Shown: positions 7,087 to 56,861 of the stretch, piece after piece
Layout of the letters: every line of letters starts with the position of its first letter
Numbering within the stretch: position 1 is the first letter of the stretch
Source of the DNA: Candidatus Heimdallarchaeum aukensis
GTDB taxonomy: Archaea > Asgardarchaeota > Heimdallarchaeia > Heimdallarchaeales > Heimdallarchaeaceae
Direction of reading: 5' to 3'
Assembly (NCBI GenBank): GCA_021513695.1
Contig: CP084166.1
Coordinates: 320,001-384,000, forward strand
DNA length: 64,000 bases
Notes under the pieces: model-generated
What the model was told of the DNA's origin: nothing
What the model saw: only the letters and a program-made list of their open reading frames with translations
The model's database searches: none
Position numbers and translations under genes: made by a program

Positions 7087-7097
7087 GAGGAAAAAAA

Positions 7098-9259: not shown

Positions 9260-9720
9260 TGATTTATATGAACAAAACACTTATTCTTTCCCTTGGTAGT
9301 AGAGTAATGTCAGATGACGCTATTGGACATGTCATTGTTCAAAACCTTCAACAAAAGAAAGTTAAAGCTGATATTATTCAATTAGATACTGATATTTTCA
9401 AATTAAACTTATTTTTTGATAATCATAAAAGAATAATAATCATCGACGCTATTCAAAGCAGTGATTCACCAGGGACAGTTCATGTAATTCCTTTTCATGA
9501 TTTTGAAAAGGAGATCGAAGGAAAAATTAGAGGAAGTCATTTTTTGGACATGAAAGAAGGTTTAGAACTTCTGCGTATAGCTAACTCCAAAATTGCTGAA
9601 GCTGAAATATTTTTAGTAGGTATAGTTATTAAAAAAATTGAACTAGGAACGGATTTAACTCCAGTTTTATTAAAAAAAATTGATGAAGTTTGTAATATTA
9701 TATCTGATCTTATAATATAG
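9259..9720 (+). CDS. hydrogenase maturation endopeptidase (HycI/HoxW family)
   Basis: ~150 aa, N-terminal LGSRVMSDDAIGHVIV matching GxGNxxxxDDGxG protease motif; 1-nt overlap with hydA stop. Confidence 0.6.
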   Translation: MIYMNKTLILSLGSRVMSDDAIGHVIVQNLQQKKVKADIIQLDTDIFKLNLFFDNHKRIIIIDAIQSSDSPGTVHVIPFHDFEKEIEGKIRGSHFLDMKEGLELLRIANSKIAEAEIFLVGIVIKKIELGTDLTPVLLKKIDEVCNIISDLII

Positions 9721-19228: not shown

Positions 19229-22200
19229 TTAGTTTCTTTTTCTCTTTCTTAAAACTACAATTGGAATAAGTAATGTCAGTGCTGAAATGTACAACAAGTC
19301 TATAGATCCAACTCTTCTTGTTTTGTCTTGTCCACCAGTGTATATGTCTGCACCTGCACTTGATCCTGTTGAGGTAGAAGCTCCGTAATCTTCCCAATTA
19401 CTTGATTCAGCTTCTTGTGAAGAACCATCTAAAGCTTGGAAAACTTGAAGTGATTCCATTCCTCCTTCCTTATCTCCTTCAAGCTCGTTTTCAAATCTGC
19501 TATCATAAATTATTTCAGCTGCAGGGATGTAACAACCGTCAGATGTTAAGAATAACCAGTGCATTGTTAATGTAACTGAGTCTCCAGGATAAAGTGTTAT
19601 TCCTTCGACTCTAATGTAACCCATTCCAAAGTAAGTTCCGTTAGAAATACTGCCTTTTGTTGTCGTCTTGGATAACAATGAAAGTTCTGTTAGGTTATAG
19701 AATTGTGTGATAGTTATATGCGTTTCAGCATCTCCTACGTTCGTAATTGTAAGAGTTACTTCAATTTCCCAAGGTGCATTTTCAGGAATGATAATTTCTA
19801 CGCTTGTTTCAATATCAAGTACTGGTTGTGGGAAAGCAGGTCTACGTTCATTGGTTCGTGGTATCAATAAAGCCCAATCCATGTTGGATAAAACCCATTC
19901 ATGAGTTTGAGCAGCACCTTCAAATTCTGCTGTAATATTGGGTTCCCAGAAATTATAAACTGGAAGAGCTTCTTGTCCATAATCACTGTCAAATTCTACA
20001 ACAGCATAAACAGGATGAATACCCAAGAATGAGTTAGCATCTACTTGTACCTCAAAGTTATATTGAGTACCATTTTCAATTGTACCTATTTCTTCATAAT
20101 AGAACAAGTCAGGATCTTCAATTTGCCAATCATTACCCATTCTACCATGGAATAGATAAAGTTTGACATTTTCAGCGTTAATATCTCCCGTGTTTCTAAT
20201 ATAACCTGTAATAGTTACTGGGTCTCCAACTTTGTAACTTGTTTGGTTTAATTCTACATGTGCGTTAATGACAGCTTCATCGTCAGCAAGCTGGAAGTTT
20301 ATACCGTTACTGAAACCAAAGTACTCAAATCCTTCAGGGTCTTGATATCTAAATCTGGCTCCAACAGATAACCAAACATCAGCTTCTTCGTCATAGTAGC
20401 TAATCGGACGACCATAAGCTAGCTGTCCTGCATCATCAGCGAAACCAAGTATCATTTGCATCATTTCTAAATAGTTATGCTTTCGAGTAATCAGTTTTAC
20501 ACCATCAGAACCCTCTAGTTCTTCTCCTCTCATAACACCAAATTCCATACTTTGAGAGGTAACATTTTCTAGAGCCCAACTCAAATGAACAGTTTCATTT
20601 GGCGCAAGGCTGGGTATAACTGCTTCAAGGAAGTATTCTGTATGTTCTTGTCCCACAGGTCCTACAGTTCTTTCAATATATTCAAAGTCTTGTAAATTAG
20701 GATCAAAAAGTGTTTGCTCCTCATAGAGTGTTGCTTGTATTGCTACTACTGAATAAGCAATACCTGTCCATAAAGCTTCTCCATAATCGTTTATTAAGCT
20801 ATCAAGATCTTCTGCGATAATATAATCTGTTAGGTCAATTTGACTTAAGTAGTAGGCAACTAGAAACGTTAAGATTGTGTTTAAACCAGTTTCAGATTTT
20901 AGAGTTGCATTTACAGTTATTGAACCAGTTCCAGGAATTCCAAATGGAGTTGTATCAAATTCTTTGTAATCAAAATTAACTATTTGCTCTGTTGCGCTTT
21001 CGTTCCAGAAAGATAATTGACCATCAGTAATATTTCTGTACCATCCATCGAAAACTAAGACAGTTACATTGACATAAAAGTCTTCTAATCCTTCTAAAGA
21101 ACCACCAAAATCAATTAGTAAAGTAGCATTAGTTTTGCTGTAAAATTCTTCATCAATTGTAACATCATCTCTTAATTTGTAGATGGTTGGACTATTAACT
21201 ATCATATCAATAAAGTCAGGACCTAAAGGATAGCTTATAGTTATATTTTCTGCAGTTTCAGTTCCTGTGTTAGTTACTTCATAATTCATCTGAAGAATTC
21301 CGTCTTCATTCAATAATTCTTGATCATAATCCATGTTAACGCTTACTCTTGGTGAAGAAGCTAATTCTGCTTGGTTCATAGTATAAACTACTTCAAAATT
21401 ACCTGTCATATCTCTCAATTTCCATGGTACTTGCATTATCCAGTCCATTTTTCCTGAAATTTGTGGTGCAACATTGTTAGGTGTTGGTGTGATAGATGAA
21501 GCGTTTATCAAATATGGGAATCTGAATTTAAGAATACTATATTTAGTTACTCCTAGTTTATCATACACCTCTAAATCTGCTCCAAACAAATTATTTGTAG
21601 AAAGTGTATATTCTCCGTTTTCTTCAACTATGGCGCCAGGATCAACATAATAGATTCCTCTAAAGTAAGTAGCTGAACGAAAATCTTCGCCAATAAAGAC
21701 TGCCTTAACAGGAGATCCAGAAACATCAGTTGTTTCAATAGCTGAAGCATAACCGCTAGTTATGTCTCCTTTGATCTCATCTGTCAGAAGTTCTATTTGT
21801 TCATCTGTTGAACCACTTGAAAAGACATATAAATAGTCTCCCTTTTCTGTTGAAGATGCTCCAGCCCAATGTAATTCTAAATTGTAATGCTCATCAAATA
21901 GTTGAGCTATCCTTAAAGATTGATTAAGACTTCCATCTGTTCCTAAAGAACCATCAATTTCAAGCAAAAGAGTAGCATTATCAGGAGCTCTGAAAGGTCT
22001 TCTCAGTAGATAATCAGCGTATTCTGTTTGATCGCTAAGAATGAAAGCCCAACTGAGGACATCCTCAAATTCGCTAGATGATACTTTTAGAGGGTTAGTT
22101 CCTCCTAAAAGACTGAGTTTGACTAGTGCAGAGCTTTCAATTCCTGCTATTATTTTCATTTCTTCAATGAATAGCTCTCTGTCCATTCCTGTACTTCCAA

Positions 22201-22300
22201 ATCCAGAAGAAGAATAAACAAGAGCTTGTGTTGTTGAACTACTAACAACAAGTAACATAATTGGTAAAACTACCAAAAATAATGTCGCTTTTTTTTTCAT
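19229..22300 (-). CDS. large surface glycoprotein with CARDB-like repeats (S-layer/adhesin candidate), C-terminal TM anchor
   Basis: Signal peptide, many N-x-S/T sequons, three segments resembling CARDB domains (YEVTNTGTETAENITIS; ITGYIRNTGDINAENVKLYLF; TLTITNVGDAETHITI), C-terminal TM + LRKRKRN. Confidence 0.5.
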   Translation of the reverse strand: MKKKATLFLVVLPIMLLVVSSSTTQALVYSSSGFGSTGMDRELFIEEMKIIAGIESSALVKLSLLGGTNPLKVSSSEFEDVLSWAFILSDQTEYADYLLRRPFRAPDNATLLLEIDGSLGTDGSLNQSLRIAQLFDEHYNLELHWAGASSTEKGDYLYVFSSGSTDEQIELLTDEIKGDITSGYASAIETTDVSGSPVKAVFIGEDFRSATYFRGIYYVDPGAIVEENGEYTLSTNNLFGADLEVYDKLGVTKYSILKFRFPYLINASSITPTPNNVAPQISGKMDWIMQVPWKLRDMTGNFEVVYTMNQAELASSPRVSVNMDYDQELLNEDGILQMNYEVTNTGTETAENITISYPLGPDFIDMIVNSPTIYKLRDDVTIDEEFYSKTNATLLIDFGGSLEGLEDFYVNVTVLVFDGWYRNITDGQLSFWNESATEQIVNFDYKEFDTTPFGIPGTGSITVNATLKSETGLNTILTFLVAYYLSQIDLTDYIIAEDLDSLINDYGEALWTGIAYSVVAIQATLYEEQTLFDPNLQDFEYIERTVGPVGQEHTEYFLEAVIPSLAPNETVHLSWALENVTSQSMEFGVMRGEELEGSDGVKLITRKHNYLEMMQMILGFADDAGQLAYGRPISYYDEEADVWLSVGARFRYQDPEGFEYFGFSNGINFQLADDEAVINAHVELNQTSYKVGDPVTITGYIRNTGDINAENVKLYLFHGRMGNDWQIEDPDLFYYEEIGTIENGTQYNFEVQVDANSFLGIHPVYAVVEFDSDYGQEALPVYNFWEPNITAEFEGAAQTHEWVLSNMDWALLIPRTNERRPAFPQPVLDIETSVEIIIPENAPWEIEVTLTITNVGDAETHITITQFYNLTELSLLSKTTTKGSISNGTYFGMGYIRVEGITLYPGDSVTLTMHWLFLTSDGCYIPAAEIIYDSRFENELEGDKEGGMESLQVFQALDGSSQEAESSNWEDYGASTSTGSSAGADIYTGGQDKTRRVGSIDLLYISALTLLIPIVVLRKRKRN

Positions 22301-25537: not shown

Positions 25538-25960
25538 TTAAAAAATTATATTCAGAAGTTCAATGAATAGATCTTTTGAAAACTCTTGATTTACTACTGG
25601 AAAAGCAAAAACCCATTTTCCAGATTTTTCTAAACGAATTATCCTTGACTCAGATAAAATTTTTAGGTGATGTGAAACAGTAGATTGAGAAAGTTCTAGA
25701 AGAAACTCTATTTCACAAGAGCATCTAACTCCTGACATAATTAATTGAAGTATTGCTAGCCTAGTTTTGCTCCCTAAAGCTTTGAATACTTTTTCATATT
25801 CTAATACACTTCTTTCATTTATAAAATTACAAATCATGTCTTTTAGTTCTTTCAGTTTTTTTAGTCTATCTTCTTCTGTCTCAGGTATAATGCCAATTTC
25901 GGTTAGTTCACTTAATTTATTCTTAAGTTCTGTATCTGTTTTTTTATTGTAATTTTTCAT
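25538..25960 (-). CDS. arsR: ArsR/SmtB family metalloregulator
   Basis: Winged-helix core LGSKTRLAILQLIMSGVRCSCEIEFLLELSQSTVSHHLKILSESRIIRLEKSGKWVFA with metal-site Cys pair (CSC) at the position of the ArsR CVC motif; divergent from acr3. Confidence 0.75.
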   Translation of the reverse strand: MKNYNKKTDTELKNKLSELTEIGIIPETEEDRLKKLKELKDMICNFINERSVLEYEKVFKALGSKTRLAILQLIMSGVRCSCEIEFLLELSQSTVSHHLKILSESRIIRLEKSGKWVFAFPVVNQEFSKDLFIELLNIIF

Positions 25961-26142: not shown

Positions 26143-27174
26143 ATGAGTAGAAAAAATTTAGGACTATTAGATAAATATTTACCTATTTGGATAGGTTTAA
26201 CTATGGTTTTTGGAGTAATGTTAGGAAAATTTGCTCCTAAAGTAGCAGAAATAATAGACAGTGTTAAAATAGATACAGTATCTGTACCCATTGCTATAGG
26301 GCTTTTATGGATGATGTATCCTGTTTTAGCAAAAGTCAATTATGAAAAAATCCCCCAAGTGACAAGAGATTGGAAAGTATTTACTTATTCGATAATTCTT
26401 AACTGGGCAGTGGGACCATTTCTAATGTATGGGCTAGCAAAATTATTTTTGTCTAATTATCCAGAATATCAAATAGGTCTAATTATTGTTGGAATAGCTC
26501 GATGCATTGCAATGGTTCTTATCTGGAATTTACTTGCAGAAGGAGATAACGAAAAAGCAGCTATACTAGTTGCCCTAAATTCAGTTATGCAGATTTTCTT
26601 ATATTCCGTTTATGCTTATTTTCTAATTGGAACGCATATAAACATAACAATGTGGGATATTGCTAAAAATGTTCTAATTTATTTAGGTATTCCACTTTTA
26701 GCAGGTTTCTTAACTAGATTTATTCTCATTCGAGTAAAAGATCAAGAGTGGTATGACAATAAATTTATGCCTAAATTGTCTCCAACAGCAATGATTGGGC
26801 TACTCTTTACAATTGTCGTTATGTTTGCTATGCAAGGAGAGACTATAGTAGATAATCCTTTAGACATTCTAATTATAGCTGTTCCTTTAACTTTATACTT
26901 TCTAATAATGTTCTTGGCTAGCATTTTTTCTTCCAAACTCCTAGGCTTTAAATATAAAGACAGTGTCACAATCTCTTTTACAGCAGCAAGTAACAATTTC
27001 GAATTAGCTATTGCTGTTGCAGTAGGGTTATTTACTATTACATCAAAACAAGCTTTAGCAACAACTGTTGGACCTTTAATTGAAGTTCCTGTGTTATTAT
27101 CTCTTGTTTATTTTGCTAAATGGTCTAAGAGTTGGTTGTTCAAAGAAAAAGATGTATTAAATAAAAGTAAATGA
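26143..27174 (+). CDS. acr3: arsenite efflux transporter, ACR3 family
   Basis: N-terminus LDKYLPIWIGLTMVFGVMLGKFAP and conserved GIARCIAMVLIWN (essential Cys) typical of ACR3/ArsB(Acr3) permeases; 10 TM. Confidence 0.85.
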   Translation: MSRKNLGLLDKYLPIWIGLTMVFGVMLGKFAPKVAEIIDSVKIDTVSVPIAIGLLWMMYPVLAKVNYEKIPQVTRDWKVFTYSIILNWAVGPFLMYGLAKLFLSNYPEYQIGLIIVGIARCIAMVLIWNLLAEGDNEKAAILVALNSVMQIFLYSVYAYFLIGTHINITMWDIAKNVLIYLGIPLLAGFLTRFILIRVKDQEWYDNKFMPKLSPTAMIGLLFTIVVMFAMQGETIVDNPLDILIIAVPLTLYFLIMFLASIFSSKLLGFKYKDSVTISFTAASNNFELAIAVAVGLFTITSKQALATTVGPLIEVPVLLSLVYFAKWSKSWLFKEKDVLNKSK

Positions 27175-28353: not shown

Positions 28354-29103
28354 TTAACTGAAAAAGTCGTCATCATCTCTTTCTTGAATATCTCCAGGTC
28401 TAATAACTGGTTCAACTTTATATACAACTTTTCCTTTCCAATAGTATTCTCCTGTTTTATAGATTGGGTTTTTCCTTATATAAGCTAAAGTGCTTCTTGG
28501 TATTCCAAACTTGTTTGAAATCGTACTCATAGTAGCATTATCCTCGAACATTTGAAAGATCTCAATTAACTTTGGTCTCATCTCTTCATCAACTATAAGT
28601 TTTCCATTTTCAATTTTATAGCCTAATGGAGGTCTAGACATTATCTTTTGTTCTCCAATTCTTCGTTTAATACCATATTTCCTTTTTTCTCTATACTTTT
28701 TCAGTTCTTCTTCTCCTAAAATATCATAAATTCTAGTAACGAGTTGTTCTTGAGACTCTTCAGTTGCTCTAATTTCTACTCCCATGCTTCTTAGAATAAC
28801 AGTAGCGTAACCCAACATGTCTACTTGCCTTGAAATTCTATCTCTTGTTTGAACCCAAACTTCTCTTATTGGATCACCAGCATTATTCTTATTGTAAGTT
28901 CTAATGAATTCTAGCATCTTCTTGAAACCTGGTCTCTCTTCTACGTGACTATCACCACTCACTTCTTCATCAATAAAAGTTTCAATAACATGTCTATATC
29001 CAACTGACTTAATTTTTTGTCTAATTACTTCTTCTTGTGTACCTAATCCTGATTCTTGGTCTGCTGTACTCACTCTTAGATAACAAACAACATTAACATG
29101 CAT
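28354..29103 (-). CDS. serine recombinase (resolvase/invertase catalytic domain + partial large-serine-recombinase domain)
   Basis: N-terminal YLRVSTADQ with catalytic Ser, resolvase fold through ~aa 140, then SRPPLGYKIENGKLIVDEEMRP resembling start of the 'recombinase' domain; only 249 aa. Confidence 0.7.
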   Translation of the reverse strand: MHVNVVCYLRVSTADQESGLGTQEEVIRQKIKSVGYRHVIETFIDEEVSGDSHVEERPGFKKMLEFIRTYNKNNAGDPIREVWVQTRDRISRQVDMLGYATVILRSMGVEIRATEESQEQLVTRIYDILGEEELKKYREKRKYGIKRRIGEQKIMSRPPLGYKIENGKLIVDEEMRPKLIEIFQMFEDNATMSTISNKFGIPRSTLAYIRKNPIYKTGEYYWKGKVVYKVEPVIRPGDIQERDDDDFFS

Positions 29104-29212
29104 GGTTATAAGAAGGTAGGTACATATTAAAAAGCTTATGTAATACTCAAGTTTTATGGTTATTGTCGGAATTTTAGATATTTGTAGAAATGATGACCTT
29201 TAAAAACAAGCA

Positions 29213-30070
29213 ATGAGAGAAACACAAAAAGGAGAATTGATGTTAATGAGAGAAGAAGAACAAATTTGGGAAAAATTAACTAATTTTTTTGCTGACAAAT
29301 CTGTAGTTATTGCTTTTTCTGGTGGATTAGATAGCACAGTGTTGCTAGAAGCTGCACTTGAGAAAGCAAAGAAAGTTTTAGCAGTTTTTATCAAAACAGA
29401 TCTTATACAAAACGAAGATGAAGAAGTGGTAAAAGAATATACAAAAAAACGAAATGTAGAATTAAGGATATTTAGGATAAATCTGTTGGATAATAAAGAT
29501 GTTATTAAGAATGATGCAATAAGATGTTATTACTGTAAAAAAACATTATTCTCCAAAGTAAAAGAAGAGATGAGTAAGGAAAATTTTGATATTGTTGCAG
29601 AAGGAACAAACTTCACTGACCTCTCTGATTATCGCCCTGGATTGAAAGCAATAAAAGAATTAGAGATTTCTAGTCCATTCATTGAATTTGGTGTCAGTAA
29701 GGAGCAAATAAAAAAGATTGCAGAATATTACTCATTTCCAATTTTGAAAAAAGGAGCTACAACATGTTTGGCCACAAGAATCGCTTACAATATTGAAATA
29801 ACAAAAGAAAGACTAGAAAGAATAGAAGAAGCTGAAATATTTATTAACAACCTTGTAGAAGTAAGTTCTCTTCGTGTGAGAGACCATGGAGATCTTGCAA
29901 GAATAGAGGTTAATCCTTCTGCTATTGTAAAGTTAGTGGAACCAGAAATAAGAAAAAAAATCATAGAAACTTTTAACAAAAAAGGTTTCAAATACATTAC
30001 ACTAGACTTGGAAGGATATGTTCAAGGGAGTATGAACAGAGAGATTCAACAAGATACAAAGAATGAGTGA
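29213..30070 (+). CDS. larE: ATP-dependent sacrificial sulfur transferase LarE (PP-loop ATP pyrophosphatase)
   Basis: PP-loop VIAFSGGLDSTVL, conserved Cys in CYYCKKTLF region, size ~285 aa, directly followed by larC and larB. Confidence 0.7.
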   Translation: MRETQKGELMLMREEEQIWEKLTNFFADKSVVIAFSGGLDSTVLLEAALEKAKKVLAVFIKTDLIQNEDEEVVKEYTKKRNVELRIFRINLLDNKDVIKNDAIRCYYCKKTLFSKVKEEMSKENFDIVAEGTNFTDLSDYRPGLKAIKELEISSPFIEFGVSKEQIKKIAEYYSFPILKKGATTCLATRIAYNIEITKERLERIEEAEIFINNLVEVSSLRVRDHGDLARIEVNPSAIVKLVEPEIRKKIIETFNKKGFKYITLDLEGYVQGSMNREIQQDTKNE

Positions 30071-31292
30071 TAAAATGGAAGTTATTATTATTGATCCAAG
30101 ATTAGCAGGAGCATCAGGAGATATGCTCCTTTCTGCTATTGTTGATCTTGTGGGTAAAAAGCATCTTTTAGAGTTTATAGAACAACTAAATGAATACTTT
30201 AAAACAGGAGTTAGTATTAATATAAATAGAATAAAAAAGAAAGGCTTAAACTCTGTTTACCTTGAGATGGCAATTAATAGAGATATACCTTTTAATCATG
30301 TTGTAGACCTAAAAAGAGAACTAAACGGTTTTCTGGAGTATTTACCCATATCTTCAGAAGCAAAATCTAAAATAAAAGAAACTTTTCAACTAATTTTTGA
30401 AGCTGAGTCTATTGTACATAATAAACCATTAGAAACTTTACATCTTCATGAAACAGCAAGTATTGACACATTTTTAGATATAGTGGGGTTCTACTATCTA
30501 CTGGAAAAAAACAATTTGTTAAATGTACCTTTTCTAAGTCTCCCCATAAATACTGGTTCTGGTTTTATAGAAATCTCGCATGGAAAAGTTTCTGTACCTG
30601 CTCCTGCTGTAAGCGAAATAGCTAGGGCAAAAAGTCTATTAATTTTTTCCGATGAAACTAAAGGAGAGTTGTTAACTCCAACAGGAATAGCTATTATTGC
30701 TTCTGTTATTACTAAACAAATAGAAACACTTCCTCCAATGGTCATTAAAAAGATAGCTAGGGGAGCAGGAACAAAGAATCTAAAAAATAAAGCAAATGTT
30801 GTAACGCTATTTTTCTCTGATATCCCAGAAGACGAAAGTAAACATTATCTGTCTGTTCTAGAAACTCATGTGGATGATGTTTCAGGTGAAATACTAGGTT
30901 CAATTGTTTCTTTATTACTAGAAAAAGGAGCTCTAGATGTTTCATATTATCCTTTAGTTATGAAGAAAAATCGCCCTGCTTGGAATTTGAGAATTATTTG
31001 TGAAAAAGATAAATCTTCAGAACTTGCACATTTTGTAATGCTCGAATTGGGAACTTTAGGAGTAAGGGAGACAATAGTTACAAGATATGAGTTAGAAAGA
31101 CAAATTACTATAAAAAAAGTTGAAATCAATGGGAAAATCTTTGAATGTAGATTCAAGGAAAGGAAGGTACAAGGAGAAATAGTAGGAGCTAAACCAGAAT
31201 ATGAAGACATGAAGAGAATATCCAACGAAACTGGAATTCCTCTTATTGATTTGGAAAAGCAATTACAACGACAATATTCAATAGGTGAGTAA
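30063..31292 (+). CDS. larC: nickel-pincer cofactor nickel insertase LarC (DUF111)
   Basis: N-terminal IIIDPRLAGASGDMLLSAIVDLVG matches LarC/DUF111 signature; ~409 aa; overlaps larE end. Confidence 0.75.
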   Translation: MSDKMEVIIIDPRLAGASGDMLLSAIVDLVGKKHLLEFIEQLNEYFKTGVSININRIKKKGLNSVYLEMAINRDIPFNHVVDLKRELNGFLEYLPISSEAKSKIKETFQLIFEAESIVHNKPLETLHLHETASIDTFLDIVGFYYLLEKNNLLNVPFLSLPINTGSGFIEISHGKVSVPAPAVSEIARAKSLLIFSDETKGELLTPTGIAIIASVITKQIETLPPMVIKKIARGAGTKNLKNKANVVTLFFSDIPEDESKHYLSVLETHVDDVSGEILGSIVSLLLEKGALDVSYYPLVMKKNRPAWNLRIICEKDKSSELAHFVMLELGTLGVRETIVTRYELERQITIKKVEINGKIFECRFKERKVQGEIVGAKPEYEDMKRISNETGIPLIDLEKQLQRQYSIGE

Positions 31293-32078
31293 ATGAAAAG
31301 AAGAGAGATACTTGAGAAGATATACAAAAATGAGATTACAGTGGAAGAAGCTGAAGATTTGCTTTCAAAAAACAATATTGAAGTTGTAGATGAATTTCTA
31401 AGATTTGATATTTTCAGAGAGCAAAGAACAAGCATACCTGAAATTGTTTATGCAGAAACAAAAAGTCCTGAAAATGTAGCTGAAATTGTAAAAAAAATTG
31501 CTTTAAAAAAAGAAATTTTGTTAGTCTCTCGAACTACAGAAAAACATGTTAAAAAATTAAAAGAGATAGAAGATTCGCTAAAAGATTTCAATTTTGAATA
31601 TGGCCCAGAAGAAAGATTTTGTTTAGTAAAAAAGAAAGGATATAAAGTAAAAAAAGAAAATGGAAAAGTAGGTATTATCACTGCAGGAACGTCTGACATT
31701 CCAGTAGCAACAGAAGCAAAAGTTGTTGCTGAAATGATGGGTTGTGAAACTATTTTGATAAATGATGTTGGAGTAGCTGGATTACATAGACTATTTGAAC
31801 CACTGAATTCTATTCTAAAGGAAAAAGTAGATGTTTTAATCGTTGCAGCAGGAATGGAAGGGGCTTTGCCGACAGTTATTGCAGGATTAGTAGATATCCC
31901 AGTAATTGGATTGCCAATCTCCACAGGTTATGGATTTGGAGGAAAAGGCCAAACAGCTTTAATGAGTATGCTACAAACTTGTGCACTAGGGTTGGCAGTA
32001 GTGAATATTGATGCTGGAGTAAGTGCTGGAGCTTTTGCTGCAAAGATTGCAAAAAGAGCAAGTAGGAAAAAAACTTAA
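31293..32078 (+). CDS. larB: nickel-pincer cofactor biosynthesis carboxylase/hydrolase LarB (PurE-like)
   Basis: PurE-like C-terminal half GIITAGTSDIPVATEAKVV ... LIVAAGMEGALPTVIAGLVDIPVIGLP plus LarB-type N-terminal domain. Confidence 0.75.
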   Translation: MKRREILEKIYKNEITVEEAEDLLSKNNIEVVDEFLRFDIFREQRTSIPEIVYAETKSPENVAEIVKKIALKKEILLVSRTTEKHVKKLKEIEDSLKDFNFEYGPEERFCLVKKKGYKVKKENGKVGIITAGTSDIPVATEAKVVAEMMGCETILINDVGVAGLHRLFEPLNSILKEKVDVLIVAAGMEGALPTVIAGLVDIPVIGLPISTGYGFGGKGQTALMSMLQTCALGLAVVNIDAGVSAGAFAAKIAKRASRKKT

Positions 32079-32160
32079 TGTTACAATAATTGTCTGTGAT
32101 TAGTAGATCCTCTTTATTTTATTCAGATAAACTTAAATCCAATTTATTTTCTTTTTCATT

Positions 32161-33717
32161 ATGCCTTCATTGCGGACAGTAGAAGACAAGAACAATAAAA
32201 ATCAACTAGACAAATCACGTTATTTTGATGTTATTATAACTGTAATTACAGCAATGCTAATTTTAGTCTTATCTTGTTATGTAAAAAACTTAATCAGTGA
32301 AAAAATCAAATTTCTTAGTAAGACTTTTTACTATACTTATACAAATCAACAAGGAGATACTGTTACTTGGTATTTTGAAAGTTATGGTGATGCAAGTTAT
32401 TATTATGAACCCTTCTTGCAAGCATTTCGCTTTGAAGGCTGGAATCCTTATAAAAGGTATGTAGGTTCAAAATTGGATTATTATATGTATGGACCAATTT
32501 TTATCTATAGTAAGTACATAACCTCACTAATAATTGGATTGTTAAAACCTGATTTATCACAAATAGAACTAATTGAAGCTTCAATAAAGTGGTCAGCTAT
32601 TATAATTGATTCTCTTTCTGTAATGATGATCTATATCGTAATAATAAATCTGAAATTCTTAAGAAAAAAACTTATAGTTAAACATGTTGTAGGTATTTCA
32701 GCTTCTATTGTATTAATGCTAGCTCCTATAAATCTATACTATTCAGATACTTTATACCTAAACGGACCTCTAATGACTTTTTTTGCTTTAATAGGGATGC
32801 TTTACTTTTTGAAAGAGAAATATACTCTCTCGGGCATTTTTCTTTCTTTTTCTTTCTTAAGTAAACAACTTTCTTTGTTTCTTGTTATTCAATTTTTCAT
32901 ATTAATCTGGAAAAGTAAAGACCTAAAAACAGCTTTTACAAAATTTCTGAACCCATTTATGTTAACAAGCTTTCTTTTAAGTATTCCATGGTTATTTATC
33001 ACACCAATACTTTATATTGGGAGAATATTTGCAGCAGGACATCCACAGTTCTATCTAAATGAAGAATATAGTGTAGCTCAAACTTTAGCTAATTCTATAA
33101 CAAGTTTAGGATGTGAACTGTGCGCTCAAATATATTGGTACCTAAATTTTGTAATGTTACCCTTCCTTATTTTTTATGGAGGATGTCTAGTATTTGCCCA
33201 TTTTAATGCTCAAGAAATTATGAAAAATGAAGAAAATATTATTTTATATACAACTTGGTCTGTTCTCATACTACATACATTTATTTCTAGGGGGATTTAC
33301 AAGTATTATAATATCTATATTAATGTATTTTTAGTTCTTTCAATCATTGTTGTCTCTTATAGAATAATAAAATACATATTTAAGAGGGAAAAAGAATTCA
33401 GTGTAAAAGAAAAAATTATTCTTTCGTTTATTATATTTTTATGTTATATTCTTCTCACGAGCCTTTTTTGGGGAGAAAATTTACTAATTATGAAAACTCA
33501 AAGAGAAAGACATCCACTAATATTGTTATTAGTGACAATACTATTCTCTTTTAATTTCTCATTAAAAAATTATAGAAATCTCCTTATTAAGAAAAATTAC
33601 AAAGTTTTAGTTATAGATGTAAAAAGCTTCTTTATTTACATTTATTCATCAACAAAGATTAAAATCTCAAAAATGGGAAAAATAATTGATAAGATATTAA
33701 AAAAAGAAAGTGATTAA
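32161..33717 (+). CDS. polytopic membrane protein, possible GT-C-type glycosyltransferase
   Basis: ~12+ TM helices with aromatic-rich first extracytoplasmic loop (YYYEPFLQAFRFEGWNPYKRY); assignment speculative. Confidence 0.3.
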   Translation: MPSLRTVEDKNNKNQLDKSRYFDVIITVITAMLILVLSCYVKNLISEKIKFLSKTFYYTYTNQQGDTVTWYFESYGDASYYYEPFLQAFRFEGWNPYKRYVGSKLDYYMYGPIFIYSKYITSLIIGLLKPDLSQIELIEASIKWSAIIIDSLSVMMIYIVIINLKFLRKKLIVKHVVGISASIVLMLAPINLYYSDTLYLNGPLMTFFALIGMLYFLKEKYTLSGIFLSFSFLSKQLSLFLVIQFFILIWKSKDLKTAFTKFLNPFMLTSFLLSIPWLFITPILYIGRIFAAGHPQFYLNEEYSVAQTLANSITSLGCELCAQIYWYLNFVMLPFLIFYGGCLVFAHFNAQEIMKNEENIILYTTWSVLILHTFISRGIYKYYNIYINVFLVLSIIVVSYRIIKYIFKREKEFSVKEKIILSFIIFLCYILLTSLFWGENLLIMKTQRERHPLILLLVTILFSFNFSLKNYRNLLIKKNYKVLVIDVKSFFIYIYSSTKIKISKMGKIIDKILKKESD

Positions 33718-34213: not shown

Positions 34214-37200
34214 ATGATGAAAAAAAATGTCAAAGGATTTCACCAAAATAATTTTAGAAAAAAATATATGTTTCAAAGGATAAAGAGAATTCTTATTTTC
34301 AATATTTTCTTATTAATTCTATTATCACAATACTTATTTGTTTATTCTAGTTCAACTAGTTCACAGTCTAATAATTTTCAAGAACAAGAAATTCAAATTG
34401 AAAGAAGAATTATTAATAATAAAAATAATTTACAAGGACAAAAAAATTTTGAGTATATAATTAACGATGTAGAAGAAAAAATAGAAAGATTAACTCAGTC
34501 TTTAAATTCAAAGACAGAAAGAGTAATAACGAAGGCCAATCAGAAATTGGATAATCAAAAATTGTTCAATCCCTCCTTATCAATATTTGAACCTGAACCT
34601 TCTACTTTTCTATCCTACACTTCTCACTCTCCAATTGCAATAAATGGAAATGATGATTTTATTGCTCAAGCAATCTCTGAAGGGTGGGTAGGTAGCGGAA
34701 CAGAAAGTGATCCTTATATTATATCAGGATTGAATATTACGCCATCTGACACAGAGAAAGGAATTTCAGTTTATAACACAACTCTATTCTTTAATATTGA
34801 AAATTGTGTAATTACAGGAGGAACAGAAGGTATACATTTTAACCTTGTCTCGAATGCAAAAATAATTAATATATCAATTACAAATTCATTAGAAAATAGT
34901 ATTGGTCTTTATACTTCTTCAAAAATACTAATTGACAGTTGTTCAGTTTCTGGATCTAATGTAGGAATGAATATACAGTCATCGGAAGAGATAGAAATAA
35001 ATTCATGTAAAATATTTGATACTAATGACAATGGTGTTCAAATAGCTGAAAATTCAAGATACATAACTGGAATAGATAATGTTTTTCGAAATGTTCTTTT
35101 TGGATTTCATGTAATGCATAGGTGTTATAATATTACAATAACTGGAAACCAATTTTATGAAATGATATTTGATAATGCTGTTCTTTCTGATTGGGAAAGT
35201 TCATGGAATTTCACTATCTCAGAAAACATATTTTACAACAATTCTCTAATATCTATTTTTGATTATTCATACAATAACATAATCTTAAATAACACTTTCT
35301 ATGGAGGTTCATTATTTATTAGAGGAGATAATAATAAAGTATTCAATAATTTATTTATCGCCAACGGAGAAGTTTTTGGTCAAATAACCATTTGCGATGG
35401 AAGTTATAATGAAATTGAAGAAAACATAATGGAAGCAAATATTATTATCGCTAACTTAACAAATAGCGTTATTGAAAACAATATTATTAGCTCATTAGAA
35501 GCTTTTCGACATGGATTAAATATTGAAAGTTCAAGTTACATAACTGTAAAAAACAATACGATATATAACATTACCAAAGGAACTGGAATATGCATTTCAG
35601 AAAGCTTCAAAATAGAAATGATTGAAAACTCAATTGGTTTTTTAGGAACAGAAATTGATCAAAGAGAAGGTATCAACCTATATTTATCTTCTAATCTTTC
35701 GATTATTTATAATGAAATCTTTAATGCTACAAGAATGGGTATAGCTAGTTACAAAACTAATTCTACTACTATAGAAAGCAACTTTTTCTACAATATAAGT
35801 TTGTATGGTTTACACTTTCCTGCACCGAATTATAACATTATTATTCAAAACAACACTTTTGAAACTATGCTGGATCGGGCTATTGATATAGGAGGAACAA
35901 ATAGCATTATTCAAGATAATACAATAAGACATTGTTATTCTTCAGGAATATCGTTACCCTCTCTTTCATTTAGTAAGATAATAAACAATAATATTATAGA
36001 TATTGGAGGAAGTGCAATTTCCAGCTATTGGGGATGTCTGAATCTTGAAATCGCTAATAATTTTATTTCAAACTCGTCATATGGTCTTGGTTTATCAGAT
36101 TCTTTAGATCTAATAATTCAAAAAAATACAATAACAAATATTTTGGATGTATCCATTCATATTTCTTTCACTGGTGATTATCCAATAGATTCTTTCCATT
36201 CTGCCACAAATCAAATAATAATAAACAATAATGAACTTTCTTATTCTCGAGTGGGAATTTGTATAGGTGGCCGAAATATTGATTCTAACATTCTTAATTT
36301 ATTCATCTTTGGGAATACAATTAGTAATCATGCTGATAATGGAATACAATTGCACGAGTTTAGTGGATTATTTAACATATATGACAATTTTATTGACAAT
36401 TGTGGTTGGGCAGGAATTGAACTTTGGGGAGATGAAAATGGTATAGTAGAAAACAATTCCATTTACTATTGTGACAATACTGCAAGAGATACAAGAGCTA
36501 TACAATTAGATTTTTCTTACAATGTACAAATAACTGAAAATCACATTGAAAGTAATAATATAGGCATTTATATCTATGGAAGTAGAAATTCTTCGATTAC
36601 ACTGAATTCATTCATTTCCAATGCTAACGATGGAATAATAATAGATGAAAATAAAGATAGTATAACTGAAATAGTAGTTATGCATAATAACTTTATTAAT
36701 AACAATATTGGCGGAAAACAAGCTTCAGATTTCGGTTCAAATAATGTTTTCATCTTAAATTATTGGTCTGATCACACTAACACAGATGCTAATGGAGATG
36801 GAATAGCTGATGAACCTTATTATCTCGGAGGAAATACTGGAAATGCTGATAACTTTCCTTTAGTGGACTTGGTAACTGAACAATCACCTACACATGTTAT
36901 GACGATTCCTTCAATTATTTATCCAGTTTCAGGAATAACATTGTCAGGTGTAGAAGAAATAAAATGGAAAAAAGCTTATGATTCAATGGAACATGAAGTT
37001 TTTTATGATCTTTATTATTCAAAAGATGATGGAAATAGCTGGATAATGATTGCCAATACTATAAAAGGAAACTCATATAACTGGGATACAACTAGTGTCC
37101 CTGATGGCGATAACTATAAACTTAAGGTTGTAGCAGATGATAATCATGGATTAACTTCTGTAGCTATATCTAAAACTTTTAGAATCTTAAACACTCAAAA

Positions 37201-37321
37201 TTCAGATTCAACAGATACAAAACAAACAGTTGAAGTTTCAAGCTGGTCTATATTTATTTCTTTGTCAAGCTTTCTGTTTGTTATCTACACTTTACGAAAA
37301 AGATTATTCTTCAAAAGATAA
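34214..37321 (+). CDS. giant surface protein with right-handed parallel beta-helix repeats and C-terminal TM anchor
   Basis: SD GGGGGT upstream; N-terminal TM/signal; >25 Asn/Ile-rich repeats (ISxNxIxNN, IENN, ITxN) as in NosD/pectate-lyase fold; Ig/FN3-like region near C-terminus; TM + LRKRLFFKR. Confidence 0.55.
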   Translation: MMKKNVKGFHQNNFRKKYMFQRIKRILIFNIFLLILLSQYLFVYSSSTSSQSNNFQEQEIQIERRIINNKNNLQGQKNFEYIINDVEEKIERLTQSLNSKTERVITKANQKLDNQKLFNPSLSIFEPEPSTFLSYTSHSPIAINGNDDFIAQAISEGWVGSGTESDPYIISGLNITPSDTEKGISVYNTTLFFNIENCVITGGTEGIHFNLVSNAKIINISITNSLENSIGLYTSSKILIDSCSVSGSNVGMNIQSSEEIEINSCKIFDTNDNGVQIAENSRYITGIDNVFRNVLFGFHVMHRCYNITITGNQFYEMIFDNAVLSDWESSWNFTISENIFYNNSLISIFDYSYNNIILNNTFYGGSLFIRGDNNKVFNNLFIANGEVFGQITICDGSYNEIEENIMEANIIIANLTNSVIENNIISSLEAFRHGLNIESSSYITVKNNTIYNITKGTGICISESFKIEMIENSIGFLGTEIDQREGINLYLSSNLSIIYNEIFNATRMGIASYKTNSTTIESNFFYNISLYGLHFPAPNYNIIIQNNTFETMLDRAIDIGGTNSIIQDNTIRHCYSSGISLPSLSFSKIINNNIIDIGGSAISSYWGCLNLEIANNFISNSSYGLGLSDSLDLIIQKNTITNILDVSIHISFTGDYPIDSFHSATNQIIINNNELSYSRVGICIGGRNIDSNILNLFIFGNTISNHADNGIQLHEFSGLFNIYDNFIDNCGWAGIELWGDENGIVENNSIYYCDNTARDTRAIQLDFSYNVQITENHIESNNIGIYIYGSRNSSITLNSFISNANDGIIIDENKDSITEIVVMHNNFINNNIGGKQASDFGSNNVFILNYWSDHTNTDANGDGIADEPYYLGGNTGNADNFPLVDLVTEQSPTHVMTIPSIIYPVSGITLSGVEEIKWKKAYDSMEHEVFYDLYYSKDDGNSWIMIANTIKGNSYNWDTTSVPDGDNYKLKVVADDNHGLTSVAISKTFRILNTQNSDSTDTKQTVEVSSWSIFISLSSFLFVIYTLRKRLFFKR

Positions 37322-37443: not shown

Positions 37444-38199
37444 ATGTTTATGTCGAAACTTATTCTAGAAACTGTCAATTTAACTCTTAAAATTGAAGAT
37501 AAGATAATATTTCAAAACATTAATTTAAAGATTGAAAAAGGTACAATTCACGCTTTGATTGGAGTAAATGGCTGTGGTAAGTCTTCTATTGCTAGTGTTC
37601 TTATGGGGTTGAAAAAGCCATCAAGTGGAGAAATACTTCTTGAGGGAGAAAGTATAGTTGATCTTTCAATAACTGAACGAGCGCAAAAAGGGTTAACACT
37701 AGCTTGGCAAGAACCAGTAAGGTTTGAAGGTCTTTCAGTTAAAGATTACTTATCCATTTCAAGAAAGACGAAGAATGAAAAATCTATTAAAGATGCTCTT
37801 GAATCTGTTGGGCTTATATCAGAGAAATACCTTGAACGGTTCGTTGATGATACTTTGTCTGGAGGAGAAAGAAAGAGAGTAGAACTTGCATCTATATTAC
37901 TTATGAAACCGAAAGTTGCTATTCTAGATGAAATTGATAGTGGAGTAGATTTCATTGGTATAGACAAAGTACTTGACACAATTAGAAAAATAGCTCAAAA
38001 TGGAAGCGTGCTTTTAATTACTCATCAAGATGAGTTTTTGAAAATAGCTGATAAGGCTACTTTGATTTGTAATGGAAATATCCTTAGAACAGGTGAACCT
38101 CAAGAAATTAGTAAATTTTACAGATATGAATGTACATATTGTGTAGATGAGAATAATCCTGATTTAGCTTTGGAGGAACTCTTAAATGTCAATAGATAG
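37444..38199 (+). CDS. sufC: Fe-S cluster assembly ATPase SufC
   Basis: Walker A GVNGCGKSS, ABC signature LSGGERKR, Walker B ILDEIDSG, H-loop ITHQ; ~250 aa, SufC-like. Confidence 0.8.
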   Translation: MFMSKLILETVNLTLKIEDKIIFQNINLKIEKGTIHALIGVNGCGKSSIASVLMGLKKPSSGEILLEGESIVDLSITERAQKGLTLAWQEPVRFEGLSVKDYLSISRKTKNEKSIKDALESVGLISEKYLERFVDDTLSGGERKRVELASILLMKPKVAILDEIDSGVDFIGIDKVLDTIRKIAQNGSVLLITHQDEFLKIADKATLICNGNILRTGEPQEISKFYRYECTYCVDENNPDLALEELLNVNR

Positions 38200-39136
38200 A
38201 AAGAATGAATACGAAGCACTCCTTAAGCTATTAGAAAAAGGAGGAGGGAATGCTGAAGAAATCAAAAATAACATTGGAGCAAATATGATTCTTAATAAAG
38301 ATGAAGTTATTTCTGTCAATGAAACAGAGGGAATCAAGCTAAAAGCTACTAAAATACCTGATGGGGTTAAAGCTTCTATAATTATAAAAGAAGGATATAA
38401 AGAAACAAAACCTGTTCATCTTTGTTTTGGTATGTTACCTAAAGAAGGAAAACAAATAATTAAATCTGAAATTATAGCTGGAAAGAATTCTAAAGTTAAA
38501 ATTTTAAGTCATTGTATTTTTCCAAACGCTGTACATATTCAACACATCATGGAAGGAAAAATAATTTTGGAAGAGGGAGCAGAGTTAATTTATGAAGAAG
38601 AACATTATCATTCTGAAGAAGGATTAATAGAAGTTGTTCCTGTTCAAGAAGTTGTCGTAGAAAAAAATGCAAAATATTTCAATAATTTTAAAATGAAAAA
38701 CGGAAGAGCAGGGAAGATAAATATAGACTATCTAGTTACTCTGAAAGAAAAGGCAATTGCAGAACTTACAACAAAAATAGGCGCAAAATTCGATGATGAA
38801 ATAAAAATGAAAGAAAAAATAATATTAGAAGGAAAAGAATCTAGAGGATTAATACTTTCTCGAATTGTATTAAGAGATAATTCTACAAGTGAGTTTGTAG
38901 GTATAACTGTAGGAAAAGGTGCATATTCAAAAGCTCATGTTGATTGTAGTGAAATAGTAATGGATAATGCAAAAGCTTCTGCAATACCTGAAATACAAGC
39001 TTTTGATTCTACTGCCAAGCTAACACATGAGGCTGCAATTGGAAGAATTGATCAAAAACAATTATGCACTTTAATGGCAAAAGGATTAAGTGAGAAACAA
39101 GCAATAGAATATCTAGTAAATGGTTTACTAAATTAG
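38186..39136 (+). CDS. sufB: Fe-S cluster assembly scaffold SufB/SufD-family protein (short archaeal form)
   Basis: Follows sufC with overlap; 316 aa beta-helix-type SufBD sequence (repetitive E/K-rich strands). Confidence 0.6.
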   Translation: MSIDRKNEYEALLKLLEKGGGNAEEIKNNIGANMILNKDEVISVNETEGIKLKATKIPDGVKASIIIKEGYKETKPVHLCFGMLPKEGKQIIKSEIIAGKNSKVKILSHCIFPNAVHIQHIMEGKIILEEGAELIYEEEHYHSEEGLIEVVPVQEVVVEKNAKYFNNFKMKNGRAGKINIDYLVTLKEKAIAELTTKIGAKFDDEIKMKEKIILEGKESRGLILSRIVLRDNSTSEFVGITVGKGAYSKAHVDCSEIVMDNAKASAIPEIQAFDSTAKLTHEAAIGRIDQKQLCTLMAKGLSEKQAIEYLVNGLLN

Positions 39137-44356: not shown

Positions 44357-45193
44357 TTATTTTGCTTCTTCAAAGAAGTTTTCTTTGTAAAGTCTTTTTC
44401 CATCTGCTTTATTATGTGGTTGCCTTACAAGCATATTTGTACTTTTTTCTAGTTCTCTTATCTCATCAGCAAGTAAACCAGCTTGTCTAACAATTTCATG
44501 TGCTGCTGCAAGGTATATTAATGATTTAGATTTATCTTTCTCTACATACAAACCTTTGATATCAAGTTTAGCTACTTTTGTTAACATTTCTAGAGCAGCG
44601 ACTGCTTTAGCTTTGGAGTAGTCGTTTTTGAAAGGATATGATTGAACAACTGTCATGCTTGATAGATTTCTTTTGGGTAACATCAGTTCTTTTCCTTCTT
44701 TTATTTGTTCAATTACATTATCTATTTCTTTGGTTATTAGTTCAAAAACACCAGCTGCACTAAGAACATTGATTACATAACCATTGAAAATTCCCATTTC
44801 TGTAGGATCTAGAAAATCTTTTTTTGCACCAATCATTGGATCAAAAGGAGCGATTAAATAACCTACACCTTCATTTCTCCATGATTCTCTTAGTTCTTTA
44901 TCAGCTTCGTCAGAGACAACAATGAGTGGATATTTTCCTTTTAATTCATTAACAAGCTTTTTGGGACCATCCAAATTAGCATTGGGAGAAACAACGACAA
45001 TTAAATCAGATTCTACATATTCTAGAAGTGAAAGGATTCGTTCTGCATCAGATGGAGAAAGCTTTGTAGAAGAGGATAAGACAGTTCCTTGAATGTCATC
45101 CCTACTTGCTCGTTCATCTAACATAATATCAACTAAAGTTGTTAGAGTAATATTTCCTATTTTTAAGAATGTGACCTTTACCATTTTTATCAC
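44357..45193 (-). CDS. mtd: F420-dependent methylenetetrahydromethanopterin dehydrogenase
   Basis: Full-length (~278 aa) collinear similarity to Mtd: LVDIMLDERASRDD, NEGVGYLIAPFDPMIGAKKDFLDPTEMGIFNGYVINVLSAAGVF, AKAVAALEML, LADEIRELEKSTNMLVRQPHNKADGK. Confidence 0.8.
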   Translation of the reverse strand: MIKMVKVTFLKIGNITLTTLVDIMLDERASRDDIQGTVLSSSTKLSPSDAERILSLLEYVESDLIVVVSPNANLDGPKKLVNELKGKYPLIVVSDEADKELRESWRNEGVGYLIAPFDPMIGAKKDFLDPTEMGIFNGYVINVLSAAGVFELITKEIDNVIEQIKEGKELMLPKRNLSSMTVVQSYPFKNDYSKAKAVAALEMLTKVAKLDIKGLYVEKDKSKSLIYLAAAHEIVRQAGLLADEIRELEKSTNMLVRQPHNKADGKRLYKENFFEEAK

Positions 45194-51955: not shown

Positions 51956-52675
51956 TTAATTAGGAAGAAAAAGATTAGCAATCCAAATATAAATCAAAAC
52001 AAAAGAAATTGAAAACCAAATAATAATTCTAAACCAATTTTCTTTTCTAAATTCAACCTTTTTATAATGTGATCTTTTAGATAATCCAAAACCCTTGAAA
52101 TATAAAGCTTGAGCCAAAAATTCAGAACGATAAAGAACAGAGGCTATAAAAATAGCTAGAATTTTAGGTAACCATTTGAAAATTGTTCCCTTTGTTTCTC
52201 TTAATCTTATTGTTTCAAAAGTTTCTTCTGCGTCTTTAATTATTCGTGGAGAAAGAGTTAACACTAAAGAAGGAAGTAAAGCAATCTTAGAGGGAAAATG
52301 TAAATTTTCTAGTGCTCTTGTTAATTCTGAAGGATTAGTTTTGGAAAAAAAGAAAACAAAACTTAATCCCCCATTTAGAATTCTAGTTATTGTTAAAATA
52401 CTGAAATACAATCCTGAAAAAATATAGGTCATTCCTCCTAAAAGAATTAATAGAGGAAATATAGCAATAATAATATTAAAAGCGCCGATACTATTTCCAA
52501 AAATGATGTTTTCGAACACGATTATTGCCAACATTATTACTTGAACAGCAATATTTGAAGAGAAAACGAATGAAAACTGAATTATTAAAATAATTATGCT
52601 TAGTATAGGGTTGAATATAATACCTTCAGATTGAAAAATTATTCCGCTGTAAATTCTGTTTAATAAGTAAGACAT
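51956..52675 (-). CDS. ecfT: ECF transporter transmembrane (T) component EcfT/CbiQ
   Basis: ~240 aa, 5-6 TM, CbiQ-like, immediately downstream of fused ECF ATPase. Confidence 0.65.
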   Translation of the reverse strand: MSYLLNRIYSGIIFQSEGIIFNPILSIIILIIQFSFVFSSNIAVQVIMLAIIVFENIIFGNSIGAFNIIIAIFPLLILLGGMTYIFSGLYFSILTITRILNGGLSFVFFFSKTNPSELTRALENLHFPSKIALLPSLVLTLSPRIIKDAEETFETIRLRETKGTIFKWLPKILAIFIASVLYRSEFLAQALYFKGFGLSKRSHYKKVEFRKENWFRIIIWFSISFVLIYIWIANLFLPN

Positions 52676-54337: not shown

Positions 54338-54377
54338 CCCAATAAATAAAGAAAGAAAAAAAAAGATTTGTATAGGG

Positions 54378-55145: not shown

Positions 55146-55227
55146 TATTCAAGTTTCAACTTTAATATTCAAGATTCAACTTGTATACTCCTTTAAAAAA
55201 TTTGTGGTATATCGTTAATGAGAAAAA
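55146..55227. repeat. imperfect 16-nt direct repeat in ECF operon leader
   Basis: ATTCAAGTTTCAACTT (55147-55162) and ATTCAAGATTCAACTT (55167-55182), spaced 20 nt, between panB stop and ECF S-component start. Confidence 0.4.
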
Positions 55228-56031: not shown

Positions 56032-56100
56032 TATTATCAGTCTACGATTTGAATTCTACTATAAATTTTTTCGCTGTATCGAGAAATTTATAGAAAAAAA

Positions 56101-56817: not shown

Positions 56818-56861
56818 TATTTTACTTTACTTTTTTAAATATATATAGTTTCTTAATTTTT

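Follow-up and report, generated by a model that had tools for sequence, protein, structure and literature searches.

A larE-larC-larB operon for nickel-pincer nucleotide synthesis in a Heimdallarchaeum-like archaeon, with a predicted [4Fe-4S]-type LarE, a fused LarC, and no larA close by

The founding nickel-pincer nucleotide (NPN) system is the larA-larB-larC1/C2-larE set of Lactiplantibacillus plantarum, whose LarE has a sacrificial cysteine, Cys176. In Thermotoga maritima, the CXXC-C motif of LarE binds a [4Fe-4S] cluster, which makes the enzyme catalytic, and the last cysteine is displaced by one residue (PMC9283937). In Moorella thermoacetica, LarC is a single chain, and replacing H108, H118, or H160 nearly abolished its activity. 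The enzymes that use the cofactor are no longer limited to the racemase LarA and its homologs. "Hundreds of prokaryotes" carry NPN biosynthesis genes without LarA, and a hydride transferase with the aldo-keto reductase (AKR) fold, NphT (PDB 9YEB), was described in 2026 as an NPN user, with His144 ligating nickel and Lys200 tethering the cofactor (PMC13524815). An NPAD-dependent ornithine cyclodeaminase had been published in 2025, and the criterion of an orphan larBCE led to both of these non-LarA users in 2025-2026. Here we examine a 64-kb stretch of DNA, positions 320,001 to 384,000 of contig CP084166.1 from Candidatus Heimdallarchaeum aukensis (hereafter the window), in which larE, larC, and larB lie together at 29213-32078 with no larA beside them. 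Judged from sequence, the three genes are a genuine and complete NPN biosynthesis set, forming an apparently functional operon of the [4Fe-4S]-LarE and fused-LarC type in a Heimdallarchaeum-like archaeon.

All three genes are on the + strand. The predicted ATP-dependent PP-loop sulfur insertase LarE (29213-30070, 285 amino acids) comes first, followed by the predicted CTP-dependent nickel insertase, or cyclometallase, LarC (30063-31292, 409 amino acids), and by LarB (31293-32078, 261 amino acids), the putative C5-carboxylase/hydrolase of nicotinic acid adenine dinucleotide (NaAD). The larE and larC genes overlap by 8 nucleotides (ATGAGTGA), and the ATG of larB abuts the TAA of larC with 0 nucleotides between them. 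The overlap and the abutting junction indicate cotranslation, and this arrangement argues for a single operon. A first-pass annotation of this DNA had placed three overlapping or abutting genes here, had called them LarE, LarC, and LarB, and had taken them as the whole known set for making the cofactor. We agree on each point; all three proteins score above the curated NCBIfam cut-offs.

LarE matches TIGR00268 at 256.9 bits, against a cut-off of 150, over profile positions 14-259 of 259 (NCBIfam). The PP-loop motif SGGxDS noted in the first-pass annotation is present: SGGLDS spans residues 36-41, opposite SGGIDS in the L. plantarum enzyme, whose substrate-phosphate arginines R212 and R214 are matched here by R222 and R224. 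A sacrificial cysteine had also been proposed for this protein, and this part has to be revised. The column of L. plantarum Cys176 is occupied by Thr184, and the only cysteines in the protein are C105 and C108, within CYYC at 105-108, and C185, which is shifted by one residue relative to Cys176. L. plantarum LarE has W-Y-Y-A at the CXXC positions. Under the motif definition taken from PMC9283937, then, the window LarE carries the CXXC-C of the [4Fe-4S] form and lacks the cysteine of the sacrificial subtype. Among PDB entries, 8cnz matches best (E = 1.1e-29); its RCYNCKK and DTCMATR segments pair with RCYYCKK and TTCLATR of the window protein, so that all three cysteines are aligned. We take the source of 8cnz to be Methanococcus maripaludis. 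With the CXXC-C triad in place and a threonine in the Cys176 column, the sacrificial reading is wrong for this LarE, and by motif the protein is predicted to be of the catalytic [4Fe-4S] type. A minimal Fe-S assembly pair, SufC-SufB(D), is encoded at 37444-39136 (+), 5 kb downstream of the operon; going by position, it could plausibly supply the cluster of LarE.

LarC is covered almost end to end by PF01969 (Ni_insertion; Pfam), at 330.5 bits and profile positions 2-372 of 375. Its LarC1 part scores 144.2 bits with TIGR00299 (cut-off 90), and its LarC2 part scores 116.7 bits with NF052512 (cut-off 50), the two being fused in one frame. Residues were checked by alignment to the full-length M. 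thermoacetica LarC (PDB 12bi), and 10 of the 11 functionally tested acidic-pocket or essential histidine residues of that enzyme are kept. These include the three histidines named above, which are H119, H129, and H173 here (M. thermoacetica H108, H118, and H160), together with D20, E115, H127, E130, D135, D139, and E202, the equivalents of D15, E104, H116, E119, D124, D128, and E187.

LarB scores 252.2 bits with NF033503, against a cut-off of 175, and only 42.1 bits with the purE model, which requires 149.6; the PurE-like LarB proposed at first pass is therefore a LarB by its own model and far from a PurE by the other. It matches PDB 7mj0, the L. plantarum LarB, at E = 1.9e-40. TAGTSD and AGMEGAL are kept, and MLQTCALG, whose cysteine is residue 230, aligns with MLNSCASG of 7mj0. 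Cys230 is presumably the counterpart of the active-site Cys221 of L. plantarum LarB.

The gene identities and the conserved residues can be stated as found; the chemistry, whose steps are transferred from characterized homologs, and the identity of the final user are what we infer from them. LarB would carboxylate C5 of the NaAD pyridinium ring and cleave off AMP, yielding the 3,5-biscarboxylated pyridinium mononucleotide (P2CMN), and would thus act as the P2CMN synthase. LarE would adenylylate each carboxylate with ATP and then convert it to a thiocarboxylate, giving the bisthiocarboxylic acid mononucleotide (P2TMN); C105, C108, and C185 would hold a [4Fe-4S] cluster as carrier of the sulfide, so that the enzyme could turn over rather than be consumed. 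The LarC2 domain of LarC would CMPylate the intermediate with CTP, and nickel would be inserted at the histidine-rich, acidic pocket of LarC1. The finished cofactor would then pass to an apo-enzyme encoded at another locus, most probably at least one 2-hydroxyacid racemase or epimerase of the LarA superfamily.

The operon is well kept in related archaea. The closest public genome is that of Ca. Heimdallarchaeum endolithica PR6, with a LarC that is 91% identical, and window positions 19229-41034 are gene-for-gene collinear with it; exact copies of LarC were found in three recent metagenome-assembled genomes (MAGs). Adjacent larC and larB occur in eight further Heimdallarchaeia species, and the full larE-larC-larB order in all but one of those in which the larE side can be read. 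In the exception, locus L005, three genes separate larE from larC; L011 cannot be read on the larE side, which lies beyond the contig end. Identities to the eight species are 46-47% for LarE, 51-58% for LarC, and 60-68% for LarB, and retention of the three-gene order in 8 of 9 other Heimdallarchaeia species, at 46-67% identity, points to purifying selection. Outside Heimdallarchaeia, the nearest LarC is only ~30-36% identical, which argues that the lineage has had the operon for a long time and did not import it recently.

The flanks of the operon suggest where its transcription begins and ends. The divergent intergenic region between larE and a recombinase-family gene (29104-29239; no strand) contains a TATA-like box, TTTAAAAA, at 29199-29206, upstream of larE, which may be the promoter of the larE side. 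The sequence CTTTAAAAA in the region upstream of larE is common to the window and PR6, with a similar sequence in L008. An AGGAG at 29230-29234 stands ahead of an in-frame ATG at 29240, and a 276-amino-acid LarE product is called in two MAG annotations; from these, the true start of LarE is probably the ATG at 29240. For larC, an alternative start exists at 30075. Downstream of larB is a T-rich spacer of 82 nucleotides with oligo-T runs (32079-32160, +), which, by analogy with archaeal oligo-T termination, is probably where transcription of the unit stops. After larB, no hairpin terminator of the bacterial type turned up, and no Rfam riboswitch (for example, NiCo) or tRNA was matched anywhere in the 64-kb window.

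That leaves the enzyme that uses the cofactor. The first-pass annotation had stated that no larA lies within 30 kb on either side, and this stands for a somewhat larger region. A six-frame phmmer search (--max) of the 64-kb window with two LarA queries returned nothing below E = 1, the best value being 1.8. One query was the L. plantarum sequence, which agrees residue for residue with PDB 5HUQ; the other, from Thermoanaerobacterium thermosaccharolyticum, was transcribed from the 2YJG alignment. Ten unannotated open reading frames (ORFs), including one for a membrane protein of 518 amino acids, gave nothing informative with Pfam at E values up to 1. A public contig of 115.9 kb, which agreed exactly with the window at each probe that fell within the retrieved sequence, reaches 9.06 kb farther on the left and 9.3 kb farther on the right; no larA appeared in these roughly 9 kb per side either. 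Taken together, the scans leave the operon without a LarA for ~38 kb on its left and ~41 kb on its right, so that any LarA must lie farther out.

Such a distance is usual in this part of the LarC family. LarA was found within 10 kb of LarC in 0 of 80 loci from other species, and none of 88 loci gave a LarA match when 8 further contigs were included, so users unlinked to the operon are usual among the relatives of the window LarC. In a COG-based survey, 7 of the 8 Asgard genomes had LarA homologs (20 genes altogether; mean, 2.8 per genome) (PMC11770544, Table S1), and one or more unlinked LarA homologs are thus the default expectation for this genome. The earlier view that no NPN-dependent enzyme could be named for this archaeon therefore holds for the window and not for the genome as a whole. 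A linked user is indeed missing, as is common, and this does not prove that the genome lacks LarA; the user is most likely an unlinked LarA homolog. When L. plantarum LarA was compared with a collection of 5.8 billion proteins, the organisms named among the best 120 of 8000 matches were all lactic-acid bacteria or Sporolactobacillus, with no archaeon among those named, and the result therefore has no bearing on Heimdallarchaeia. A literature search combining Heimdallarchaeia with lactate racemase turned up nothing relevant.

We consider it likely, then, that larECB makes the NPN cofactor for an apo-enzyme encoded elsewhere, most probably of the LarA superfamily. In favor of this reading, the tested residues are retained throughout the pathway: the LarC histidines and acidic pocket; the CXXC-C triad, PP-loop, and phosphate arginines of LarE; and the active-site cysteine of LarB. 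The window also encodes a group 3-like [NiFe]-hydrogenase cluster of four subunits with a HycI maturation protease (5165-9720, +), consisting of a Fer4_22 protein, an FAD/NAD-binding subunit, a small subunit, and a large subunit; besides the lar genes, it is a second system in the window that depends on nickel. Together with the SufC and SufB genes, this cluster implies an organism that uses nickel and builds Fe-S clusters. Some observations weigh on the other side. Residue R71 of M. thermoacetica LarC, whose change to alanine markedly reduced activity, is N78 in the window protein, and Y180 is replaced by phenylalanine. A search of the 64-kb window for nickel transporters, a check proposed in the first-pass annotation, found none, whether of the NikMN, NiCoT, or HupE type. 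A Pfam scan of all 51 window ORFs of at least 90 amino acids gave no match to PF09861 or PF21113 (LarA), PF00248 (AKR), or PF02423 (ornithine cyclodeaminase), and neither LarA nor AKR was present in the 9.06-kb left and 9.3-kb right extensions. Finally, placing LarA elsewhere in the genome depends on published counts that cover just 8 Asgard genomes.

Two other explanations bear directly on what the operon does. The genes could be generic paralogs with no role in NPN synthesis, namely, a PurE, a PP-loop ATPase of tRNA thiolation or some other function, and an unrelated DUF111 protein, and LarE does give weak Pfam matches to PP-loop, QueC, and PAPS-reductase families, as LarB does to AIRC. Against this, LarE and LarB pass their equivalog cut-offs (256.9 against 150 and 252.2 against 175, respectively), whereas the generic models fail: purE at 42 against 149.6, TilS at 30.6 against 93.6, QueC at 21 against 150, and GuaA also below its cut-off. 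The best matches among solved structures are LarE, LarB, and LarC themselves, and the three genes are co-operonic. We regard paralogy as next to impossible, and the concern that LarE might be a tRNA-thiolation enzyme, which had been raised at first pass, was not borne out. Less improbable, although still rather unlikely in our estimation, is that the genome has no LarA and that the cofactor serves an NphT-like AKR, an NPAD-type ornithine cyclodeaminase, or an unrecognized family. Many prokaryotes have larBCE without LarA, and two such user families came to light in 2025-2026, so the first-pass statement that known NPN users are LarA homologs is now outdated. Relatives also offer candidates, none of them a window gene. 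In L005, an AKR fused at its C terminus to a 2x[4Fe-4S] domain is encoded two genes after larB (L005:12564-13718, -), with equivalents of NphT T142 and H144 in GFSFH (GITGH in NphT). Classical short-chain dehydrogenases follow larB in L009 (2677-3549), L011 (1793-2584), and, as a fragment, L007 (12026-12415), and another lies 2 kb downstream of larB in L005 (13937-14824). Set against these are the published LarA counts, with homologs in all but one of the 8 Asgard genomes, and the lack of any AKR, ornithine cyclodeaminase, or short-chain dehydrogenase in the window or its 9-kb extensions. The candidates themselves fare poorly. The L005 AKR has glycine at the position of the cofactor-tethering K200, and its histidine motif is not specific to lar-linked members. 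It belongs to a very large AKR-FeS family with at least 8000 candidates and 60-65% identity across Asgard archaea, Bathyarchaeia, and Zixibacteria, and H[LI]GFSFH occurs in 89 of 120 members (the best 120 of at least 8000). We therefore set this protein aside as an NphT-like user, the motif being widespread and not diagnostic. The short-chain dehydrogenase keeps the canonical dinucleotide motif TGxxxGIG (as TGSSKGIG) and YxxxK, and it persists in an AB_125-like locus, L084, with no lar genes within ~7 kb; it was downgraded accordingly. Both proteins are weak leads.

The gene divergent from larE encodes a serine-recombinase-family protein of 249 amino acids (28354-29103, -; PF00239, 65.9 bits). 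Its Resolvase domain carries intact catalytic serine and arginine motifs, YLRVSTADQ and RDRISR. At 95.6% identity, it is the best-conserved gene of the region relative to PR6, and it adjoins larE in six other species representatives at 73-75% identity (73-96% over L004, L006-L008, L010, and L012, L004 being PR6); the L005 protein is 75% identical and is encoded 2.5 kb from larE. Across Heimdallarchaeia, it is more conserved than the lar genes. Its family comprises 48 clusters, with a main group that is 61-96% identical and nearly always 249 amino acids long, and wherever a source name identifies an organism, it is one of the Heimdallarchaeia. A recombinase that is so core-like and so highly constrained is unusual. 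In five other contexts (among L084-L093), the gene sits in a related neighborhood, where the retrieved sequence contains no lar genes, amid peptidases of families S58, S8, and S9, an acetyltransferase, and PlsY. Beta-helix proteins recur beside it in L086, L091, and L093. A 74%-identical copy lies among small same-strand ORFs in L087 (3367-13653) and L088, with a 708-amino-acid protein carrying an MTBMA_p00010-like domain, a ribbon-helix-helix protein, and an SDH_protease/NfeD-like protein; this cluster has the look of a Heimdallarchaeon plasmid or virus that has integrated.

On the far side of the recombinase gene are two arsenic genes, arsR (25538-25960) and ACR3 (26143-27174; 343 amino acids; TIGR00832, 409 bits), as the first-pass annotation had recognized. 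Both are syntenic in PR6, where ACR3 is split into two ORFs of 170 and 134 amino acids (L004:6093-7130), possibly a pseudogene or a sequencing frameshift. The further suggestion that the recombinase and the arsenic genes mark the border of a variable region finds no support, given the collinearity with PR6, the 95.6% identity of the recombinase, and the lack of repeats, a tRNA, or viral homologs. Searches around the promoter and the operon gave only AT-rich repeat matches expected by chance; no homolog of the recombinase was found in viral contigs and no tRNA target in the 64-kb window, and the base composition of the region is unremarkable. Thus, the flanking repeats, tRNA target, and patchy presence in close relatives that are hallmarks of integrated elements are not seen at this locus. 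By its sequence conservation and gene neighborhood, the recombinase behaves like a gene passed on vertically that stands where synteny breaks at depth, rather than like the integrase of a recent island; only at deep distance does it stand at a breakpoint where larECB is present or absent. A literature search on serine recombinases in Heimdallarchaeia turned up nothing relevant.

One can still envision that the recombinase and larECB form a cassette that the recombinase mobilizes (a mobile NPN module) or switches (an invertible promoter). The divergent recombinase/larE pair is kept in the window and in six species (a seventh has the two genes 2.5 kb apart), with outer flanks that vary, other Heimdallarchaeia have the recombinase in a related, peptidase-rich neighborhood without lar genes in the sequence retrieved, the catalytic motifs are intact, and the 74%-identical copy resides in a small-ORF cluster resembling a mobile element. 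The borders of such a cassette, or of an invertible promoter, were sought around the recombinase and lar genes, and no inverted or direct repeats rose above the AT-rich chance level. The region is collinear with PR6, has no tRNA, viral-contig homolog, or compositional anomaly, and includes a recombinase that is 73-79% identical across species, compared to 46-67% for its supposed cargo. This difference, and the nearly constant length of 249 amino acids, fits a vertically inherited core gene, and we consider the cassette very improbable. A bolder idea, to which we give somewhat more weight while still thinking it improbable, is a Heimdallarchaeia module in which the core recombinase-family gene is paired divergently with larECB, the cofactor serves an unrecognized non-LarA enzyme, and the recombinase-like protein acts as a regulator or as an agent of lar gain and loss. 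Were this true, it would mean a new nickel-pincer enzyme family in Asgard archaea and a recombinase domesticated for a metabolic function.

Several other features of the region deserve mention. The gene that follows the operon, 82 nucleotides after larB (32161-33717, +), encodes the polytopic membrane protein of 518 amino acids, which has no Pfam or NCBIfam match; it is 83% identical in PR6, and a 35%-identical protein is encoded near larB in L009 (3559-5202) on the opposite strand. The transporters in the window are an energy-coupling factor (ECF) module, ACR3, MFS and MMPL proteins, and Na/sulfate symporters. The ECF transporter (51956-55145) was considered as a nickel importer and rejected, since it has a riboflavin-type S component and pantothenate genes alongside. 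The wider ECF region (51956-57647, -) encodes EcfT, a fused double ATPase, and this S component, and adjoins genes for ketopantoate hydroxymethyltransferase and an archaeal phosphopantothenate synthetase; the transporter is probably an importer of a vitamin or precursor, not of nickel. A methylene-tetrahydromethanopterin dehydrogenase, Mtd (44357-45193, -; 285 bits), is consistent with a tetrahydromethanopterin-dependent C1 pathway. Several very large predicted surface proteins with right-handed beta-helix/NosD or CARDB/DUF11 repeats are encoded at 3598-4998 (-), 19229-22300 (-), and 34214-37321 (+). In the L005, L006, L008, and L010 loci, one flanking protein matches the Actin family of Pfam at E = 1e-59 and is presumably an Asgard actin homolog.

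This study adds a well-supported Asgard example, from Heimdallarchaeum, to the NPN pathway, in which LarC is fused and LarE is predicted to be of the catalytic Fe-S kind. An orphan cofactor operon is in itself a common and already published situation and answers no open question on its own. If the genome were truly without LarA, it would offer a clean case for a new nickel-pincer enzyme among the closest archaeal relatives of eukaryotes.

How, then, does this operon compare with those already described? Like the orphan larBCE clusters of the 2026 discovery pipeline, it has larB, larC, and larE together and no larA within ~20 ORFs; unlike them, it has no adjoining AKR, ornithine cyclodeaminase, or other NAD(P)-type oxidoreductase, its immediate neighbors being the recombinase-family gene and the membrane protein with no family match. 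Its LarC shares the single-chain LarC1 and LarC2 of the M. thermoacetica enzyme (PDB 12bi-12bl) but differs from it by asparagine for R71, lysine for H53, phenylalanine for H70, and phenylalanine for Y180, and a phmmer E value of only 7e-36 between the two marks a deeply diverged lineage. Its LarE has the same CXXC-C triad as its sole cysteines, with the same one-residue shift, as T. maritima LarE and the proteins of 8cnz, 8cp3, and 8cp4; identity to these is moderate, and the window protein is known from its sequence, with the cluster predicted. Compared to the founding L. plantarum system, the same three families are present, with the same predicted route from NaAD through P2CMN and P2TMN to NPN, and the LarB active-site cysteine, the LarE PP-loop and phosphate arginines, and the LarC histidine cluster are common to both. 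The window operon differs in its order, larE-larC-larB, with neither larA nor a nickel transporter adjacent. Its LarC is one unbroken ORF, whereas the LarC1 and LarC2 of L. plantarum are joined by a frameshift, and its LarE has CXXC-C in place of the sacrificial Cys176.

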